A stretch of DNA of 32,000 bases from Aulosira sp. FACHB-615 (GCF_014698045.1 NZ_JACJSE010000019.1:84625-116624); one strand, 5' to 3'. Numbered from the stretch's first letter, positions 5,771-12,441 are shown. A program made the numbers and translations. Notes: generated by a model from the sequence alone, not told the origin.

Positions 5771-6907
5771 ATGGAAATATTTTGGTATTTACCGACCCAA
5801 GGCGATGAACGATATTTAGGGACAAAAATTGGTAGACGACAAGCTAATTATCCTTATATGCAGCAAATTGCCCAAGCTGTGGATAAATTAGGCTACGGTG
5901 GGATGTTAATTGGGACGGGACAAAAGCAGGATACTTGGATTGTGGCTGCTTCTTTGATTCCAGTGACAGAACGCTTACGGTTTTTGGTGGCGTTTCGTCC
6001 AGCCATTATGTCACCTTCCCTTGCGGTGAGAATGGCGGCTACCTTTGACCAACTTTCTAACGGTCGGATTATTTTAAACGTGGTGACTGGTGGTGACTCT
6101 AAAGAATTAGCGAAAGATGGAGTTTTCTTAGACCATGACCAGCGTTATGAATTGACTGATGAATTTTTAACAATTTGGCGATCGCTTATGCAAGGTGATG
6201 ACGTAACCTTCAAAGGTCGCCACCTGCAAGTTGAGGGTGCTAAATTACAATTCCCCCCAGTCCAAAAGCCTTACCCGACTTTATATTTTGGCGGTTCTTC
6301 TGATGCGGCTTTGCAAGTTGCAGCCAAACACATCGATGTTTATTTAACTTGGGGTGAACCACCAGCCCAAGTTGCCGAAAAAATTGCTAAAGTCCGCCAA
6401 TTAGCAGCAGAACAAGGTAGAACAGTCCGTTTTGGCATTCGGATGCACGTTATCGTCCGGGAAACCACCCAAAAGGCTTGGGATGCAGCCAACGAACTAA
6501 TCAAATATCTCGATGATGACACAATTGCATCTGCTCACAAACGCTTTGTCCAGTCAGAATCAGCAGGACAACGGCGGATGGCGCAGCTAAATAACGGTAG
6601 TCGCCAAAATTTAGAAATTAGCCCGAATTTATGGTCTGGTGTCGGGTTAGTCCGGGGTGGTGCAGGTACAGCCTTAGTCGGAGATCCAGACACAGTGGCC
6701 GCCAGAATACAGGAATATGCTGATTTGGGGATTGATACCTTTGTATTTTCCGGCTACCCCCACTTAGAAGAAGCTTATCGCGTCGCTGAGTTACTTTTCC
6801 CCCGCTTACCACTGCAAACTCCGCAAAACGCCATACCACAGCAATTACCAACACCCTTTAACGAGTTTGTCACCAAGACAGATTTACTTAAACCCCAGCC
6901 TGTGTAG
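5771..6907 (+). CDS. ssuD: FMNH2-dependent alkanesulfonate monooxygenase (LLM class)
   Basis: [18 protein letters not shown]..., [99 protein letters not shown] are collinear with E. coli SsuD as I recall it. Confidence 0.85.
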
Positions 6908-8353: not shown

Positions 8354-8390
8354 AGAGGGGTATACAGATGTATGCCCCTCTATCTTTAAT
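8354..8390 (+). terminator. Candidate terminator hairpin after the LLM monooxygenase gene
   Basis: agaggggtata (8354-8364) pairs with tatgcccctct (8371-8381), followed by atctttaatt. The U tract is weak. Confidence 0.4.
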
Positions 8391-8410: not shown

Positions 8411-8536
8411 ATGTGCGACTTGATCTCAAACCTAACCCCCAACCCCTTCCCTTGTAGGGAAGGGGAGTAAGAATTAAAGCCTCTCTCCGTTGCGGGGAGA
8501 GGAATGGAAGTGGGGTTTAAAAAATAAGTCGCACAT
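8411..8536. mobile_element. MITE-like element with 11-bp perfect terminal inverted repeats
   Basis: atgtgcgactt (8411-8421) and aagtcgcacat (8526-8536). Two internal hairpins: ccccttcccttgtagggaagggg and cctctctccgttgcggggagagg. No ORF. Confidence 0.65.
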
Positions 8537-8586: not shown

Positions 8587-9048
8587 ATGGAACCAGTAAC
8601 CTTAACAGCCGTAGGAACTGCGATCGCTACTATAGTTTTAACTAAGGCTTTAGAAAGAACAGGCGAAATGCTGGGGGAAGCTGCATTAGAAAAAAGTAAC
8701 GAGTTAATCGCCAAGCTACGCCAGAAAAATAAGCTGCCCTCGTCCTTAGCGAATACGCCAGAGGGAAAGGCAGAGGAAGCGTTAGATTATGGTAATGCTG
8801 TGTTGGAGTTGAAAGCCGCAGCCGATACAGATACCGAAATTGCTCAATCAGTGCGGGAAGTGGAAGCCACAATCAATCAAGATCAGTCCCAGACTGCTGA
8901 GGAAATTCAAAAATTAGCCGCAGAAATTCAAGCGCAGCCAGCAATTGTTAATAACTTTGCCAAGTTAGCAGAAAGTATCCAAGCTGAAAAAGGGTCAATG
9001 GTTGCCCAACAAATCACAATTAATAATCCGCAAAACACATACAACTGA
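8587..9048 (+). CDS. 153-aa all-helical protein with a hydrophobic N-terminal helix; candidate N-terminal (effector) domain of the downstream NB-ARC/TPR protein
   Basis: MEPVTLTAVGTAIATIVLTKALERTGEMLGEAALEKSNELIAKLRQK..., with residues 3-19 uncharged and rich in G/A/T/I/V. The rest is charged, Ala/Glu/Gln-rich and helix-like. It is in the same frame (mod 3) as ORF 9118-11562 and separated from it by only one stop codon. Confidence 0.6.
   Translation: MEPVTLTAVGTAIATIVLTKALERTGEMLGEAALEKSNELIAKLRQKNKLPSSLANTPEGKAEEALDYGNAVLELKAAADTDTEIAQSVREVEATINQDQSQTAEEIQKLAAEIQAQPAIVNNFAKLAESIQAEKGSMVAQQITINNPQNTYN
9046..9048 (+). other. Single in-frame TGA separating the N-terminal helical domain from the NB-ARC-TPR reading frame
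   Basis: ...aca tac aac TGA cta cag ccg ccc gaa cag gaa cgg gta aag tca aat cct gaa ata ccg caa aat tta ccc ctg agt ggg gtg gtg aaa ttt gtg gga cgt = ...TYN*LQPPEQERVKSNPEIPQNLPLSGVVKFVGRDEEL. There is no further stop until 11560. Confidence 0.9.
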
Positions 9049-9117
9049 CTACAGCCGCCCGAACAGGAACGGGTAAAGTCAAATCCTGAAATACCGCAAA
9101 ATTTACCCCTGAGTGGG

Positions 9118-11562
9118 GTGGTGAAATTTGTGGGACGTGATGAAGAACTGCAAAACCTCCACCAACTATTGCAGGAAAATAACCAAGTAGCCATTGCAGC
9201 TATTTTAGGAATGGGTGGACTGGGTAAAACAGAACTCGCCTTGCAATATGCCATGACTCAGCGCGAAAACTACAAAGGTGGACTGTGCTGGTTACAGGCG
9301 AAAGTCGAGGATTTTGGCGTTCAAGTGGTGCGGTTTGCCAGAACTCAGCTTGATTTAAAGCCACCAGAAGAATTTGATTTATCTACACAAGTACAATACT
9401 GCTGGCGGAACTGGCGTGAGGGTAATGTGCTGCTGGTGGTGGATGATGTTACAGATTACCAGCAAATCAGACCTTACCTACAGGGCGCATCTTCCCGATT
9501 TAAAGTGTTGATGACTACCCGCAAAAAGTTGGGTGCAGCCATCAAGCAATTACCTTTAGATGTATTACAACCAGATGCAGCATTGGAGTTGTTACGGTCT
9601 TTGCTGGCAGAAACACCAGGGCGAATTGAGAGAGAATTAGATGTAGCAAATCAATTGTGCGAATGGCTGGGGTATTTGCCTTTGGGTTTAGAGTTGGTGG
9701 GGCGATATCTGGCGCGGAAGCAGGATTTGTCTATATCGAAAATGATGGGGCGATTAAAGGAAAAGGAAAAGCCACTAGAACAACCTGCACTTGTGAACCC
9801 AGAAGCCGATATGACAGCACAATTGGGAGTGCAAGCCGCCTTTGAGTTGAGTTGGCAGGAATTAGCAGAGGATGATAAGTTATTAGGCTGTGTACTCAGT
9901 TTATTTGCAGCCGCCCCCATACCCTGGAAATTAGTAGAACAGTGCTTAACAGAAAAAGATGAGGATGAGTTAGAGGAAATTCGGGATGATAAATTATTGA
10001 ATCTGCATCTACTCCAGCGCAAAGGTGAGGGAATCTATCAACTACATCCCCTACTGCGGGAATTTTTCCAATCTAAGTTTACAAGTTTAGAGCAGGTAGA
10101 GGAATTTAAGCGATCGTTTTGTCAGGTAATGGTAGCAGTTGCTAAAGAAATTCCTGAGACTCCTACCCTTGAAGAAATTAACGCTGTTTCCCTCGCCACA
10201 CCACACATAGCTGAAGTAGCAAACAATCTCATTCAATACGTCAGTGATGAAGATGTAATCTGCCCTTTCGTCGGCTTAGGTTATTTCTATCAAGGACAAG
10301 GGTTATATACCCAAGCCGAACCTTGGAATCAGCAGTGTTTATCAACAGCACAAAACCGCTTGGGAGACAATCATCCCGATGTCGCCACCAGCCTCAACAA
10401 TTTGGCTGAACTCTACCGCACCCAAGGAAAGTACGACCAAGCCGAACCCCTGTATCTCCAAGCTTTAGAACTCAGACAAAGCCTGCTGGGAGACAATCAT
10501 CCTGATGTCGCCGCCAGCCTCAACAACTTGGCAGCACTCTACAATTACCAAGGAAAGTACGACCAAGCTGAACCCCTGTATCTCCAAGCTTTTAAACTCA
10601 GACAACGCCTGTTGGGAGACAATCATCTCGATGTCGCCGCCAGCCTCAACAACTTGGCAGAACTCTACAAATCCCAAGGAAAGTACGACCAAGCTGAACC
10701 CCTGTATCTCCAAGCTTTTAAACTCAGACAACGCCTGTTGGGAGACAATCATCTCGATGTCGCCGAAAGCCTCAACAACTTGGCAGGACTCTACAAATCC
10801 CAAGGAAAGTACGACCAAGCCGAACCCCTGCATCTCCAAGCTTTAGAACTCAGACAACGCCTGCTGGGAGACCATCATCCGTCAGTCGCCCTAAGCCTCA
10901 ACAATTTGGCAGCACTCTACAAATCCCAAGGAAAGTACGACCAAGCCGAACCCCTGTATCTTCAAGCTTTAGAACTCTATAAACGCCTGCTGGGAGACAA
11001 TCATCCCTCAGTCGCCACCAGCCTCAACAACTTGGCATTACTCTACTATTCCCAAGGAAAGTACGACCAAGCCGAACCCCTGTATCTCCAAGCTTTAGAA
11101 CTCGATAAACGCCTGCTGGGAGACAATCATCCCAATATCGCCACCAGCCTCAACAACTTGGCAGCACTCTACTATTCCCAAGAAAAGTATGACCAAGCCG
11201 AACTTCTGTATCTCCAAGCTTTAGAACTCCATAAACGCCTGCTGGGAGAGAATCATCCCAATGTCGCTATGAGTCTCAACAACTTGGCAAATCTCTACAA
11301 TTACCAAGGAAAGTACGACGAAGCCGAACCTCTGTATCTCCAAGCTTTAGAACTCGATAAACGCCTGCTGGGAGAGAATCATCCCAATGTCGCCACCAGC
11401 CTCCACAACTTGGCAGCACTCTACTATTCCCAAGGACGGTATGACGAAGCCGAACCCCTGTATCTCCAAGCTTTGAATATTTTGGAGCGAAGTTTAGGAG
11501 GGAATCATCCTAATACTGTGAGAGTGCGTGAGAATTTAGCAATTTTACGCGATCATCTCTAA
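9118..11562 (+). CDS. NB-ARC (STAND/NLR-type) ATPase with C-terminal TPR array. The frame is open from 9049, and the annotated GTG start is probably not the native N-terminus.
   Basis: P-loop GMGGLGKT (9208-9231), Walker B LLVVDDV and GLPL-type motif WLGYLPLGLELVG, followed by about 9.5 x 42-aa TPR units. The only in-frame start candidates after the TGA are GTG 9118/9121, right at the VKFVGRDEEL boundary motif. The first in-frame ATG is inside the P-loop. Confidence 0.85.
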   Translation: MVKFVGRDEELQNLHQLLQENNQVAIAAILGMGGLGKTELALQYAMTQRENYKGGLCWLQAKVEDFGVQVVRFARTQLDLKPPEEFDLSTQVQYCWRNWREGNVLLVVDDVTDYQQIRPYLQGASSRFKVLMTTRKKLGAAIKQLPLDVLQPDAALELLRSLLAETPGRIERELDVANQLCEWLGYLPLGLELVGRYLARKQDLSISKMMGRLKEKEKPLEQPALVNPEADMTAQLGVQAAFELSWQELAEDDKLLGCVLSLFAAAPIPWKLVEQCLTEKDEDELEEIRDDKLLNLHLLQRKGEGIYQLHPLLREFFQSKFTSLEQVEEFKRSFCQVMVAVAKEIPETPTLEEINAVSLATPHIAEVANNLIQYVSDEDVICPFVGLGYFYQGQGLYTQAEPWNQQCLSTAQNRLGDNHPDVATSLNNLAELYRTQGKYDQAEPLYLQALELRQSLLGDNHPDVAASLNNLAALYNYQGKYDQAEPLYLQAFKLRQRLLGDNHLDVAASLNNLAELYKSQGKYDQAEPLYLQAFKLRQRLLGDNHLDVAESLNNLAGLYKSQGKYDQAEPLHLQALELRQRLLGDHHPSVALSLNNLAALYKSQGKYDQAEPLYLQALELYKRLLGDNHPSVATSLNNLALLYYSQGKYDQAEPLYLQALELDKRLLGDNHPNIATSLNNLAALYYSQEKYDQAELLYLQALELHKRLLGENHPNVAMSLNNLANLYNYQGKYDEAEPLYLQALELDKRLLGENHPNVATSLHNLAALYYSQGRYDEAEPLYLQALNILERSLGGNHPNTVRVRENLAILRDHL
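10360..11559 (+). repeat. 126-nt (42-aa) coding tandem repeat, about 9.5 units, kinesin-light-chain-type TPR
   Basis: Units start at 10360, 10486, 10612, 10738, 10864, 10990, 11116, 11242, 11368 and 11494 (partial). Consensus: LGDNHPxVAxSLNNLAxLYxxQGKYDQAEPLYLQALELxxRL. Adjacent units differ at only about 6-7 of 126 nt. Confidence 0.9.
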
Positions 11563-11613: not shown

Positions 11614-11856
11614 CAAGTTTCCTGTTTTGAACTCAACGTTTCATGTTCAGAACCCGAAGTTTCGTGTTGCAAACGAGAATGTTCCTGTTTCCAACTAAAG
11701 TATTCTTGTTTTCAGTGAGAACGTTCTTGTTCTAAAGGAGAATGTTTCTGTTTCAAACGAGAACTTTCCTGTTTCCAGTGAGAATGTTCTTGCTGCAAAG
11801 GAGAATCTTCTAGTTCTGAGGTCGAATGATGGTGTTTTGAAACGTGAGTTCGATGA
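11614..11856. repeat. Degenerate 20-22-nt tandem array (about 11-12 units), many units containing a GAAnnTTC palindrome
   Basis: Units include cgagaatgttcctgtttccaac / tgagaacgttcttgttctaaag / gagaatgtttctgtttcaaa / cgagaactttcctgtttccag / tgagaatgttcttgctgcaaag / gagaatcttctagttctgag. GAAnnTTC occurs at 11656, 11677, 11718, 11761, 11782 and 11803, spaced about 21 nt or multiples of it. Confidence 0.75.
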
Positions 11857-11883
11857 CCTCTCCCCAACCCCTCTCCTTGCAGG

Positions 11884-12090
11884 CTACGGTATACACACAA
11901 GTCGAAAATAGGCAGTATGAAAGCCTATCCCGCCTTGAACTAAAGTTCCAGGCTCATAGCCAAAGTCCACTCAAGTGGACTGGAATGAGTTTCTTGTTGA
12001 GTCCTCTTCAGAGGACTTGCGCTGTGAGACTCGGAATTTATTCCGAGGCGGGACAGATGCACTCAACCGAGATTTGTGTGTACACCATAG
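11884..12090. mobile_element. Nested MITE-like insertion with about 17-bp TIRs and an 11-bp flanking direct repeat
   Basis: The TIR is ctacggtatacacacaa (11884-) paired with ttgtgtgtacaccatag (-12090). It is flanked on both sides by ctccttgcagg (11873-11883 and 12091-12101), which looks like a target-site duplication. Three internal hairpins: ccactcaagtgg, gtcctcttcagaggac, ctcggaatttattccgag. Confidence 0.6.
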
Positions 12091-12107
12091 CTCCTTGCAG
12101 GGGAGAG

Positions 12108-12238
12108 GTAAGTAACCACGCAAAATTAATTACAGTCATTGCGAGCGAAGCGAAGCAATCCCAGCCCTTGCGATTGCTTCATTTCGCTTCGCTCCATTCG
12201 CAATGACTTTGTGTAATTAATTATGTTTAACTACTTAC
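12108..12238. mobile_element. Second nested hairpin element (gtaagta...tacttac ends) with a long gtcattgcgagcgaagcgaagcaatc stem
   Basis: The ends are gtaagtaaccacgcaaaattaattaca and tgtgtaattaattatgtttaactacttac. The inner stem 12135-12207 pairs gtcattgcgagcgaagcgaagcaatc with gattgcttcatttcgcttcgctccattcgcaatgac. Confidence 0.6.
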
Positions 12239-12441
12239 CCTGCGGGAAGCAAGCTATGGAGAGGGGTTTTTTAAACTCATCGAACTCACGTTATGAAGGT
12301 GTAGGGGGAGCATCATCAAGTAAATTCACAGGCGATATGTGGGGTATGATGGGTTTGTTTTGAGAGTGGCGATCGCTTAAAACAAACACTATGAGCGATC
12401 GCTTGTGAGAATTGAGAGATATAGCGGTAGTCAGTTTTTAT

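Follow-up and report, generated by a model that had tools for sequence, protein, structure and literature searches.

Results

Genes at the Locus

The analysis of a 32,000-nucleotide stretch of DNA from Aulosira sp. FACHB-615 (GCF_014698045.1, NZ_JACJSE010000019.1:84625-116624; hereafter the window, with positions counted from its first letter) identified two open reading frames (ORFs) on the plus strand, at positions 8587-11562, that share one frame and are separated by a single TGA. The upstream ORF encodes a small Bell-like protein, here termed the effector, and the downstream ORF encodes an NLR-like receptor. The effector ORF starts at ATG 8587 and comprises 153 codons, ending at TGA 9046-9048, with C (9049) as the next base. 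The same frame resumes after the TGA and is open for 837 codons, up to position 11559, and the receptor stop codon is located at 11560-11562. The first 23 codons downstream of the TGA, LQPPEQERVKSNPEIPQNLPLSG (9049-9117, plus strand), form a linker that is open in the effector frame, contains no canonical start codon and continues into VVKFVGRDEEL; the part upstream of the GTG includes VRLNPEIPQNLPLSGVVK. The first in-frame start-type codons 3′ of the TGA are GTG 9118 and GTG 9121, and the first in-frame ATG lies inside the P-loop, GMGGLGKT (9208-9231). A first-pass annotation of the window had described one frame, interrupted solely by TGA 9046-9048 and with no ATG before the P-loop, and re-reading of the frames showed this to be exact. 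No terminator-like site was found on the plus strand between the two ORFs.

The effector (8587-9045, plus strand) is a protein of 153 amino acids whose N-terminus reads MEPVT; helix 1, at residues 6-25, is hydrophobic, and the C-terminal tail, AQQITINNPQNTYN, is rich in N and Q. It begins with MEPVTLTAVGTAIATIVLTKALE, a MEPIS-type motif, with an acidic residue at position 2-3, leading into helix 1, and the protein start reads MEPVT-LTAVGTAIATIVLT. The N-terminal sequence MEPVTLTAVGTAIATIVLT carries no charge, as the first-pass annotation had noted. Across the effector family, M1, T5-T7, A8, T11-T15 and K20/E23 are invariant or near-invariant. An AlphaFold2 model was an all-helical bundle (predicted local distance difference test score of 74, predicted template modelling score of 0.66), with helices at residues 6-25, 31-46, 68-81, 83-98, 102-115 and 118-145, and a disordered tail at residues 138-153. 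The exact sequence was not on record in a protein look-up. There were 158 close homologues, all of them standalone among the matches listed, and nearly all were 139-160 amino acids long, with a few shorter fragments and two proteins just under 200 amino acids. A profile search of 1.84 billion representative proteins returned 344 clusters at 50% identity, almost all of 120-160 amino acids.

By the published definition, the Bell, Hell and Babybell domains are united by an N-terminal "MEPIS" motif that opens hydrophobic helix 1, and this helix is cupped by approximately four helices; homology is otherwise very low, and the folds within the superfamily vary widely. Bell proteins are 120-140 amino acids long, are abundant in Nostocaceae and adjoin NLRs (Dyrka et al. 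2020, bioRxiv 10.1101/2020.01.06.895854). The window effector fits the published Bell definition in its MEPIS-type N-terminus, predicted helical bundle and NLR adjacency, and is therefore called Bell-like here. The earlier proposal of a Bell/HeLo-like N-terminal domain is thus upheld as far as this definition goes, and it gained nothing from profiles or structures. The effector had no match in the curated families of Pfam, NCBIfam, PADLOC and PHROGs, none of which holds a Bell hidden Markov model; a sequence-profile search of the PDB was empty, and a Foldseek search of the model against the PDB gave no match below E = 1.6. A further family member, the L064 protein (RCJ37669.1), is distinct from RCJ33357.1, the protein used by Dyrka et al.

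The Pfam scan confirmed the NB-ARC and TPR architecture that had been assigned to the downstream ORF. The NB-ARC NTPase domain is located at 9139-9723 (plus strand; PF00931, E = 1.3e-15, 57.7 bits against a cutoff of 23.5), corresponding to residues 31-225 of the translation from 9049, and it includes the P-loop (Walker A motif). It is followed by approximately 10 TPR_12/TPR_10 repeats, presumed to be the sensor region (10267-11559, plus strand; TPR_12, E = 1e-187, 10 stretches). The ORF thus has the order expected of a STAND or NLR-like NTPase, an NB-ARC domain with Walker A and then a repeat sensor region. No copy of the effector tail was found in the receptor's N-terminal region (LQPPEQERVKSNPEIPQNLPLSG...), so the locus lacks the paired motifs of a classical bacterial amyloid signalling sequence (BASS) system. 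Related classical NB-ARC receptors have their own ATG and carry an N-terminal amyloid-like motif just 5′ of the PQNLPLSGV.KFVGR boundary, which is the place that the effector tail would take in a fusion. As it has no clear start codon, the receptor orthologue in PCC 7120 (L081/L082, 5460-7715), encoded downstream of the effector BAB75480.1, is present in public databases with six N-termini, giving proteins of 640, 644, 724, 727, 728 and 731 amino acids.

Conservation of the In-Frame TGA

A genome scan for effector relatives found 278, and the best 80 loci, mostly from Nostocales, were fetched. The small ORF ended in TGA in 78/80 of these loci and in TGA-C in 77/80, and the frame stayed open into a P-loop NTPase; in the two exceptions the Bell gene was visibly broken. 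Six more distant members of the effector family, sampled blind, were also analysed. Four of them (L083, L085, L086 and L089) had an in-frame TGA-C junction followed by a STAND NTPase, and a fifth (L087) had TGA-A followed by a decayed receptor remnant of 67 codons. The sixth (L088) had an ordinary TAA followed by a vWA gene with its own ATG, and is a negative control that represents a normal two-gene arrangement within the effector family.

The stop-codon statistics, like the first covariation statistics below, were restricted to loci defined by the small protein. The junction stop was TGA in 84/87 such loci and TGA-C in 82/87, and the three non-TGA loci comprised two broken Bell genes and the locus with the vWA partner and its own ATG. 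At the same loci the receptor 3′ stops were TAA (39), TAG (16) and TGA (11), with TGA-C in 1/66, and TGA-C was the rarest stop context in the background (11/326). The junction stop and its context are therefore conserved beyond phylogenetic expectation, as would be expected of a recoding site. The TGA-C junction is kept across Nostocales and beyond, with Bell proteins down to ~30% identity to that of the window. Loci that have lost the receptor show an altered stop (TAA in L151) or an altered stop context (TGA-A in L087). The first-pass annotation had asked whether codon 154 is a sense codon in orthologues and whether the TGA might be a base-call error; the alignment showed a conserved TGA and no sense codon, and an error is excluded by the recurrence of the same TGA-C in independently assembled loci. 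Orthologues in the form of two well-separated genes with independent starts, which it had regarded as incompatible with its proposal, were not seen.

The receptor frame was conserved as well. A P-loop was present in frame within 140 codons in 130/144 junctions, and in no junction (0/144) was the receptor in another frame; of the other 14, one had a variant P-loop and one an additional nonsense codon, and the rest were contig ends or decayed loci. From the TGA to the P-loop, no in-frame stop was found over 5,595 linker codons (77 loci), compared with 361 and 482 in the other two frames. The linkers had 13 distinct lengths, all multiples of three, and these include indels located 5′ of the putative GTG start. 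No ATG, GTG or TTG was present before the P-loop in 7/125 distinct junctions. As a complete NTPase domain would need a start at least 20 codons upstream of the P-loop, this region was scored separately, and it contained no ATG, GTG or TTG in 31/125 distinct junctions and no ATG in 103/125. Both the effector and the receptor are under purifying selection. The downstream ORF is thus in frame, open and coding, and its own initiation does not explain these features, with the caveat of the GTG-GTG pair in the NB-ARC class.

One metagenomic locus (L126, reverse-strand position 6830) has another stop one codon 3′ of the TGA; the receptor ORF beyond it is in frame, spans 498 codons and has its P-loop at codon 51. 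The additional stop reflects either a nonsense mutation of recent origin or a double stop.

Sense codons at the junction position in three database proteins (W, W and S) were considered as a sign of Trp decoding, and were withdrawn after the DNA was checked. P0069 (L149, ENA ERZ27286106 k141_596624) shows Trp in the protein, while the contig has TGA, which identifies a gene-caller artefact. In P0266 (L150) the TGG is genuine but the receptor carries a frameshift, and P0221 (L151) has TCC but has lost its ATG. L151 also contains, at 196-700, a Bell-like gene ending in TAA, followed by a remnant of the junction and hairpin, GTGGAGTCGCCTGAATCGGAACAGACAAAGTTAACTC, and no receptor. Apparent fusions in protein databases therefore need checking at the DNA level.

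RNA Element Downstream of the Stop

The nucleotides that follow the stop are conserved even at synonymous sites, with the typical sequence TGA CTR NAG TCG YCN ... GGTAAAGTYAAATCC. In the window, the proposed recoding site is the stop tetranucleotide UGA-C (9046-9049, plus strand), which overlaps an 8-nucleotide spacer, CUACAGCC (9049-9056). The spacer is nearly invariant at +4 C, +5 U and +8 A, and its length is fixed in all 131 distinct junctions. A 5-base-pair hairpin starts exactly 8 nucleotides after the UGA (9057-9074, plus strand), with the 5′ arm GCCCG at 9057-9061, the loop AACAGGAA at 9062-9069 and the 3′ arm CGGGU at 9070-9074. The same helix was predicted independently by RNAalifold.

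The hairpin is supported by covariation. In the protein-defined alignment, 97.4% of the cells were paired, compared with at most 39% in slid controls. Compensatory double changes were present at 3/5 hairpin pairs, in 57 cells, a level reached by 0/500 shuffles. One of the covarying pairs joins a synonymous Pro third position (CCC/CCT) to an Arg/Gln change (CGG/CAG), and protein-level constraint does not explain this pair. A perfect 5/5 stem was present in 120/131 distinct junctions, with 18 distinct arm pairs, versus 6% in the shuffled null. A conserved RNA structure is therefore present 3′ of the stop at the distance seen in recoding sites. An Rfam scan at E ≤ 10 detected no selenocysteine insertion sequence (SECIS) and no other known RNA family at the junction.

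A second stem would pair loop nucleotides CAGGA (9064-9068) with UCCUG (9084-9088), and this tentative pseudoknot spans 9064-9088 on the plus strand. Stem 2 was paired in 92.8% of the cells, with compensatory changes at two pairs, and slid controls reached 86%. The duplex energy was -6.9 for self pairs, -6.4 for cross pairs (p = 0.04) and -3.5 for shuffled pairs (p = 2e-45). The purine-rich loop thus matches the pyrimidine run 3′ of it much better than shuffles do, with weak covariation.

Two further pairings were noted. UGACU (9046-9050) can pair with the conserved AGUCA (9077-9081), and the stop codon would be sequestered in such an outer helix; 98% of the aligned cells can pair, both strands are near-invariant, and covariation gives no support either way. 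A small hairpin of ACCCC (9105-9109) with GGGGU (9115-9119) overlaps the first GTG and could regulate an internal start.

Effectors and Receptors Joined by the Element

Several receptor types are located behind the same junction. These include NB-ARC with TPR, as in the window; NACHT with HEAT and NCC-H, with or without NCAB1; and NB-ARC with DUF7779 and a phycobilisome-protein-like region. The last type is represented by L069:5436-7421 (Aetokthonos hydrillicola) and L127, in which a C-terminal PF00502 domain (E = 2e-36) replaces the TPR or HEAT repeats. As judged by these domain matches, it is an NLR whose putative sensor region resembles a phycobiliprotein.

A metagenome search with the DNA pattern of the RNA element alone, in which TGA-C and parts of the stem were prescribed, returned 60 sites with the same plan. 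Different upstream proteins were present at some loci, including a TIR domain (L114:201-869; TIR_2, 60 bits) and alpha/beta-hydrolase or serine-esterase-like ORFs (L112:1634-2587, minus strand; L116; L125; L128:506-1474). The TIR and alpha/beta-hydrolase ORFs each end in an N/Q/G-rich tail right before the UGA. Both are effector classes that occur with amyloid signalling motifs beside NLRs (Dyrka et al. 2020, bioRxiv 10.1101/2020.01.06.895854). The RNA element was not found on viral contigs.

Flanking Regions

The flanks were as the first-pass annotation had described them, with metabolic genes on one side, signalling genes on the other and debris of miniature inverted-repeat transposable elements (MITEs) on both. 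The 5′ neighbours of the cassette are a dienelactone hydrolase and two luciferase-like monooxygenases. At 8354-8381 (plus strand), a terminator-like hairpin, with a 12-base-pair stem followed by a T-rich tail, closes the upstream monooxygenase gene and marks where a separate transcription unit for the cassette begins. The 3′ neighbours are two-component signalling genes, comprising a response regulator and histidine kinases with PAS and GAF domains, together with a gene for an HtrA-like protease.

A MITE-like element at 11841-12292 has perfect 16-nucleotide terminal inverted repeats, AACGTGAGTTCGATGA and TCATCGAACTCACGTT, located 420 nucleotides apart, and contains several nested imperfect palindromes. 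On the other side, a palindromic element at 8413-8536 has 10-nucleotide terminal inverted repeats, TGTGCGACTT and AAGTCGCACA, identified by eye, together with internal hairpins. It was not reported by the repeat tool, which was run with a seed of 9 and a minimum length of 14, and it gave weak microRNA-precursor-like Rfam matches on both strands.

Discussion

We propose that the UGA at 9046-9048 is a site of programmed readthrough, from which an abundant free effector and a rare effector-NLR fusion would be produced in one frame. On the comparative evidence we consider this the probable explanation of the locus. It corresponds to one of three readings offered by the first-pass annotation, in which low-level UGA readthrough sets the ratio of free N-terminal domain to full-length NLR, and it is the best supported of the three by the stop identity and context, the conserved frame, the missing start codons and the covarying hairpin.

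Most ribosomes would end at the UGA and release the free 153-amino-acid Bell-like effector. On a minority, the UGA would be decoded by a near-cognate tRNA, of which tRNA-Trp is the probable one, and the product would be a fusion of ~990 amino acids with the order effector-linker-NB-ARC-TPR. Readthrough would be favoured by the leakiest stop codon, by C at +4 and by the hairpin, possibly a pseudoknot, 8 nucleotides downstream, which would lie at the mRNA entry channel when the stop codon occupies the A site. Among the stop codons UGA leaks most, leakiness is promoted by C at +4 (Q-beta), and UGA-CUA is a readthrough context (PMC7026636). The same source describes the decoding of UGA by near-cognate tRNA-Trp and the murine leukaemia virus (MuLV) signal, which consists of an 8-nucleotide spacer followed by a pseudoknot.

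In the proposed mechanism, the fusion would be the actual sensor. Its TPR/NB-ARC part would oligomerise on a trigger and cluster the N-terminal copies of the effector and its tail, and the clustered copies may then act as nuclei for the excess free effector, or recruit it, through templating of an amyloid-like or homotypic kind. This templating would amplify a membrane-disrupting cell-death or abortive-infection response. Bell-type effector/NLR pairs signal via shared amyloid motifs (Dyrka et al. 2020), and a Bell relative executes antiphage abortive infection via amyloid signalling (Ibarlosa et al. 2024, bioRxiv 10.1101/2024.11.07.622273). The readthrough fusion would replace the separate NLR-side amyloid motif of the two-gene Bell/NLR pairs; template and substrate would be identical in sequence by construction, and their ratio would be set by the efficiency of recoding.

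Several points weigh against this interpretation. Readthrough itself is something we infer from comparative data, and the nucleation and amplification model is entirely our inference. The loci are related paralogues and orthologues, so their counts are not phylogenetically independent, and the metagenome search is circular for the features that its pattern fixed. The linker pN/pS (non-synonymous to synonymous polymorphism ratio) of 0.53-0.55 is only moderately low, and as synonymous sites are constrained too, part of the linker conservation may be at the RNA level. The 5-base-pair hairpin is weak, with a window minimum free energy z-score of -1.7; one distant locus, L085, has the in-frame TGA-C and no recognisable hairpin; and the pseudoknot, judged from pairing and duplex energies, is plausible but unproven. 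The sense codons in L150 and L151 are in possibly decaying loci and are not informative about the inserted residue. Furthermore, we know of no readthrough in bacteria that is stimulated by a 3′ structure.

The main rival is a serious one, and is strongest in the NB-ARC class to which the window belongs. It states that two proteins are made separately, with the effector ending at the UGA and the receptor initiated independently or by termination-reinitiation coupling, either at GTG-GTG (9118/9121) in the NB-ARC class or, elsewhere, at a non-canonical codon. Interaction of the two proteins would be in trans, and the role of the hairpin would lie in coupling, in mRNA stability or in controlling access to the ribosome-binding site. 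Gene callers do annotate effector and receptor as two genes, the classical Bell/NLR pairs form two-gene operons in which the genes overlap or lie a tiny spacer apart, and intact sense-codon fusions are essentially absent from the effector family. To the points against readthrough must also be added the codon preference at the GTG-GTG pair (9118-9123, plus strand; Val-Val of GVVKFVGR): GTG is used at 44/50 (88%) and 40/43 (93%) of the two Val codons before KFVGR, versus 37% in receptor bodies. The pair is a possible internal start, and on this preference a receptor-only product may be made in addition to the fusion. What separate initiation leaves unexplained is a TGA-C that stays constant while receptor stops drift, and a frame that is kept without one out-of-frame receptor, with stop-free linkers and with indels 5′ of the GTG in multiples of three. 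It also conflicts with the quarter of distinct junctions that offer no start for a complete NTPase (31/125) and with the few that offer none at all before the P-loop (7/125). No start codon follows the purine-rich loop at Shine-Dalgarno spacing and, as no receptor motif matches the effector tail, there is no obvious surface for coupling in trans. We therefore regard separate initiation as the sole explanation of the locus as unlikely.

The remaining explanations are less probable still. Readthrough might depend on a dedicated or inducible decoder, such as a suppressor tRNA that reads UGA, a change in RF2 activity or a suppressor carried by a phage, in which case the amount of fusion would report a translational state such as infection or stress. 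UGA-C with a structure is compatible with any mode of readthrough, and Nostocales have stress-induced accessory tRNA operons (PMC8421152); a term search of that paper gave no match for readthrough or stop codons, for nonsense suppression, or for tRNA-Trp or an anticodon UCA. No tRNA gene was found in the window, and the presence of the cassette family in many genera favours a universal decoder, so that we consider a dedicated one improbable. Decoding of the UGA as selenocysteine, with the hairpin as a bacterial SECIS, is suggested by the layout, a UGA closely followed by a conserved hairpin, and we give it almost no weight. A 5-base-pair stem with a purine-rich loop of 8-11 nucleotides differs from SelB-binding hairpins, the Rfam scan detected no SECIS family, no homologue has Cys at the UGA position, and the UGA sits in an interdomain linker and not at a redox site. 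A lone in-frame stop without a downstream ATG would be flagged as a pseudogene by PGAP-type pipelines, and the first-pass annotation had listed a disarmed pseudogene and a gene fission caught in progress as its other two readings. Both are refuted by the conservation of the in-frame TGA-C across loci and across effector and receptor families, and together with a sequencing error peculiar to the window they have, in our view, hardly any credibility. The junction is conserved in more than 100 cyanobacterial loci, TGA-C is at the same position in independently assembled loci that include complete genomes such as PCC 7120, and both halves are under purifying selection.

The range of partners raises a broader proposal, that in filamentous cyanobacteria UGA-C, the 8-nucleotide spacer and the covarying hairpin or pseudoknot form a dedicated, portable recoding joint between interchangeable death or signalling effectors and interchangeable STAND receptors. 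The fusion would be a small, fixed fraction beside a large pool of latent free effector, and would seed the conversion of that pool once the receptor oligomerises. We consider the case for and against this extension to be evenly balanced.

Viruses and eukaryotes offer well-established cases of programmed stop-codon readthrough. To our knowledge, the bacterial examples are a few isolated cases without a conserved 3′ RNA stimulator. No prior report linking readthrough or recoding with cyanobacteria, Nostoc, Anabaena, NLRs or antiphage functions was found in a search that covered few subscription journals. If correct, our interpretation would add a third NLR architecture to the "all-in-one" and the "two-gene with paired amyloid motifs" forms and, in its broader version, would be the first instance in chromosomal genes of bacteria of a programmed stop-codon readthrough that is family-wide and associated with an RNA structure. 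It suggests that an NLR-type sensor is kept very scarce and yet stoichiometrically coupled to an abundant executioner, and a fusion would remove the need for two amyloid motifs to co-evolve. It also makes testable how bacterial Bell/NLR pairs signal and why the two known architectures coexist. The more than 130 distinct junctions, with their built-in covariation, provide a natural series for how bacterial ribosomes and RF2 read through. Annotation pipelines give such receptors arbitrary N-termini and may mark some of them as pseudogenes, and the counts of effector repertoires of bacterial NLRs are probably too low as a result.

Comparison with Known Systems

The closest known systems are the Bell/BASS and NLR pairs (Dyrka et al. 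2020) and the Bab/Agp abortive infection system (Ibarlosa et al. 2024), which share with the window a small helical effector (~120-150 amino acids) with a MEPIS-type start, a hydrophobic helix 1 and a short N/Q/G-rich C-terminal tail. In the Bell/BASS pairs, as here, the effector is immediately upstream of and collinear with an NB-ARC or NACHT receptor, the family is enriched in filamentous cyanobacteria, and TIR and alpha/beta-hydrolase effectors occur as alternatives. In contrast, the window receptor has no N-terminal motif matching the effector tail, the receptors described here often lack a start codon, and a single in-frame UGA-C lies between the ORFs, with a covarying hairpin behind it. 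A text search of Dyrka et al. 2020 found neither "stop codon" nor "in-frame". The predicted fusion itself, comprising effector, NTPase and repeats, resembles the all-in-one bacterial NLRs with MEPIS/Bell-like or TIR N-terminal domains (such as Avs2 and bNACHT02/11/23), although here it would be a minor product beside an excess of free effector from the same frame.

Among recoding systems, the coat/A1 pair of phage Q-beta is likewise a prokaryotic leaky UGA, whose two products have an N-terminal module in common and are made at a fixed low ratio; its minor extended product works with assemblies of the major product. It differs in being a phage RNA with no known need for a 3′ structure, whereas the present genes are chromosomal and immune-type, with a receptor extension of ~840 amino acids and a 3′ hairpin. 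MuLV gag-pol and the viral and eukaryotic UGA-CUA contexts share the order of stop, 8-nucleotide spacer and structured element, and UGA-CUA or UGA-CUG is the dominant hexanucleotide here. MuLV, however, uses UAG with eukaryotic ribosomes and release factors, while stem 1 here has only 5 base pairs and the pseudoknot is unproven. The tau/gamma products of Escherichia coli dnaX provide a chromosomal example of recoding in bacteria, with two products that have a common N-terminus at a set ratio and stimulation by a 3′ hairpin. In dnaX a -1 frameshift at a slippery site gives the shorter product, whereas the junction described here has no slippery site and would, without a change of frame, give the longer one.

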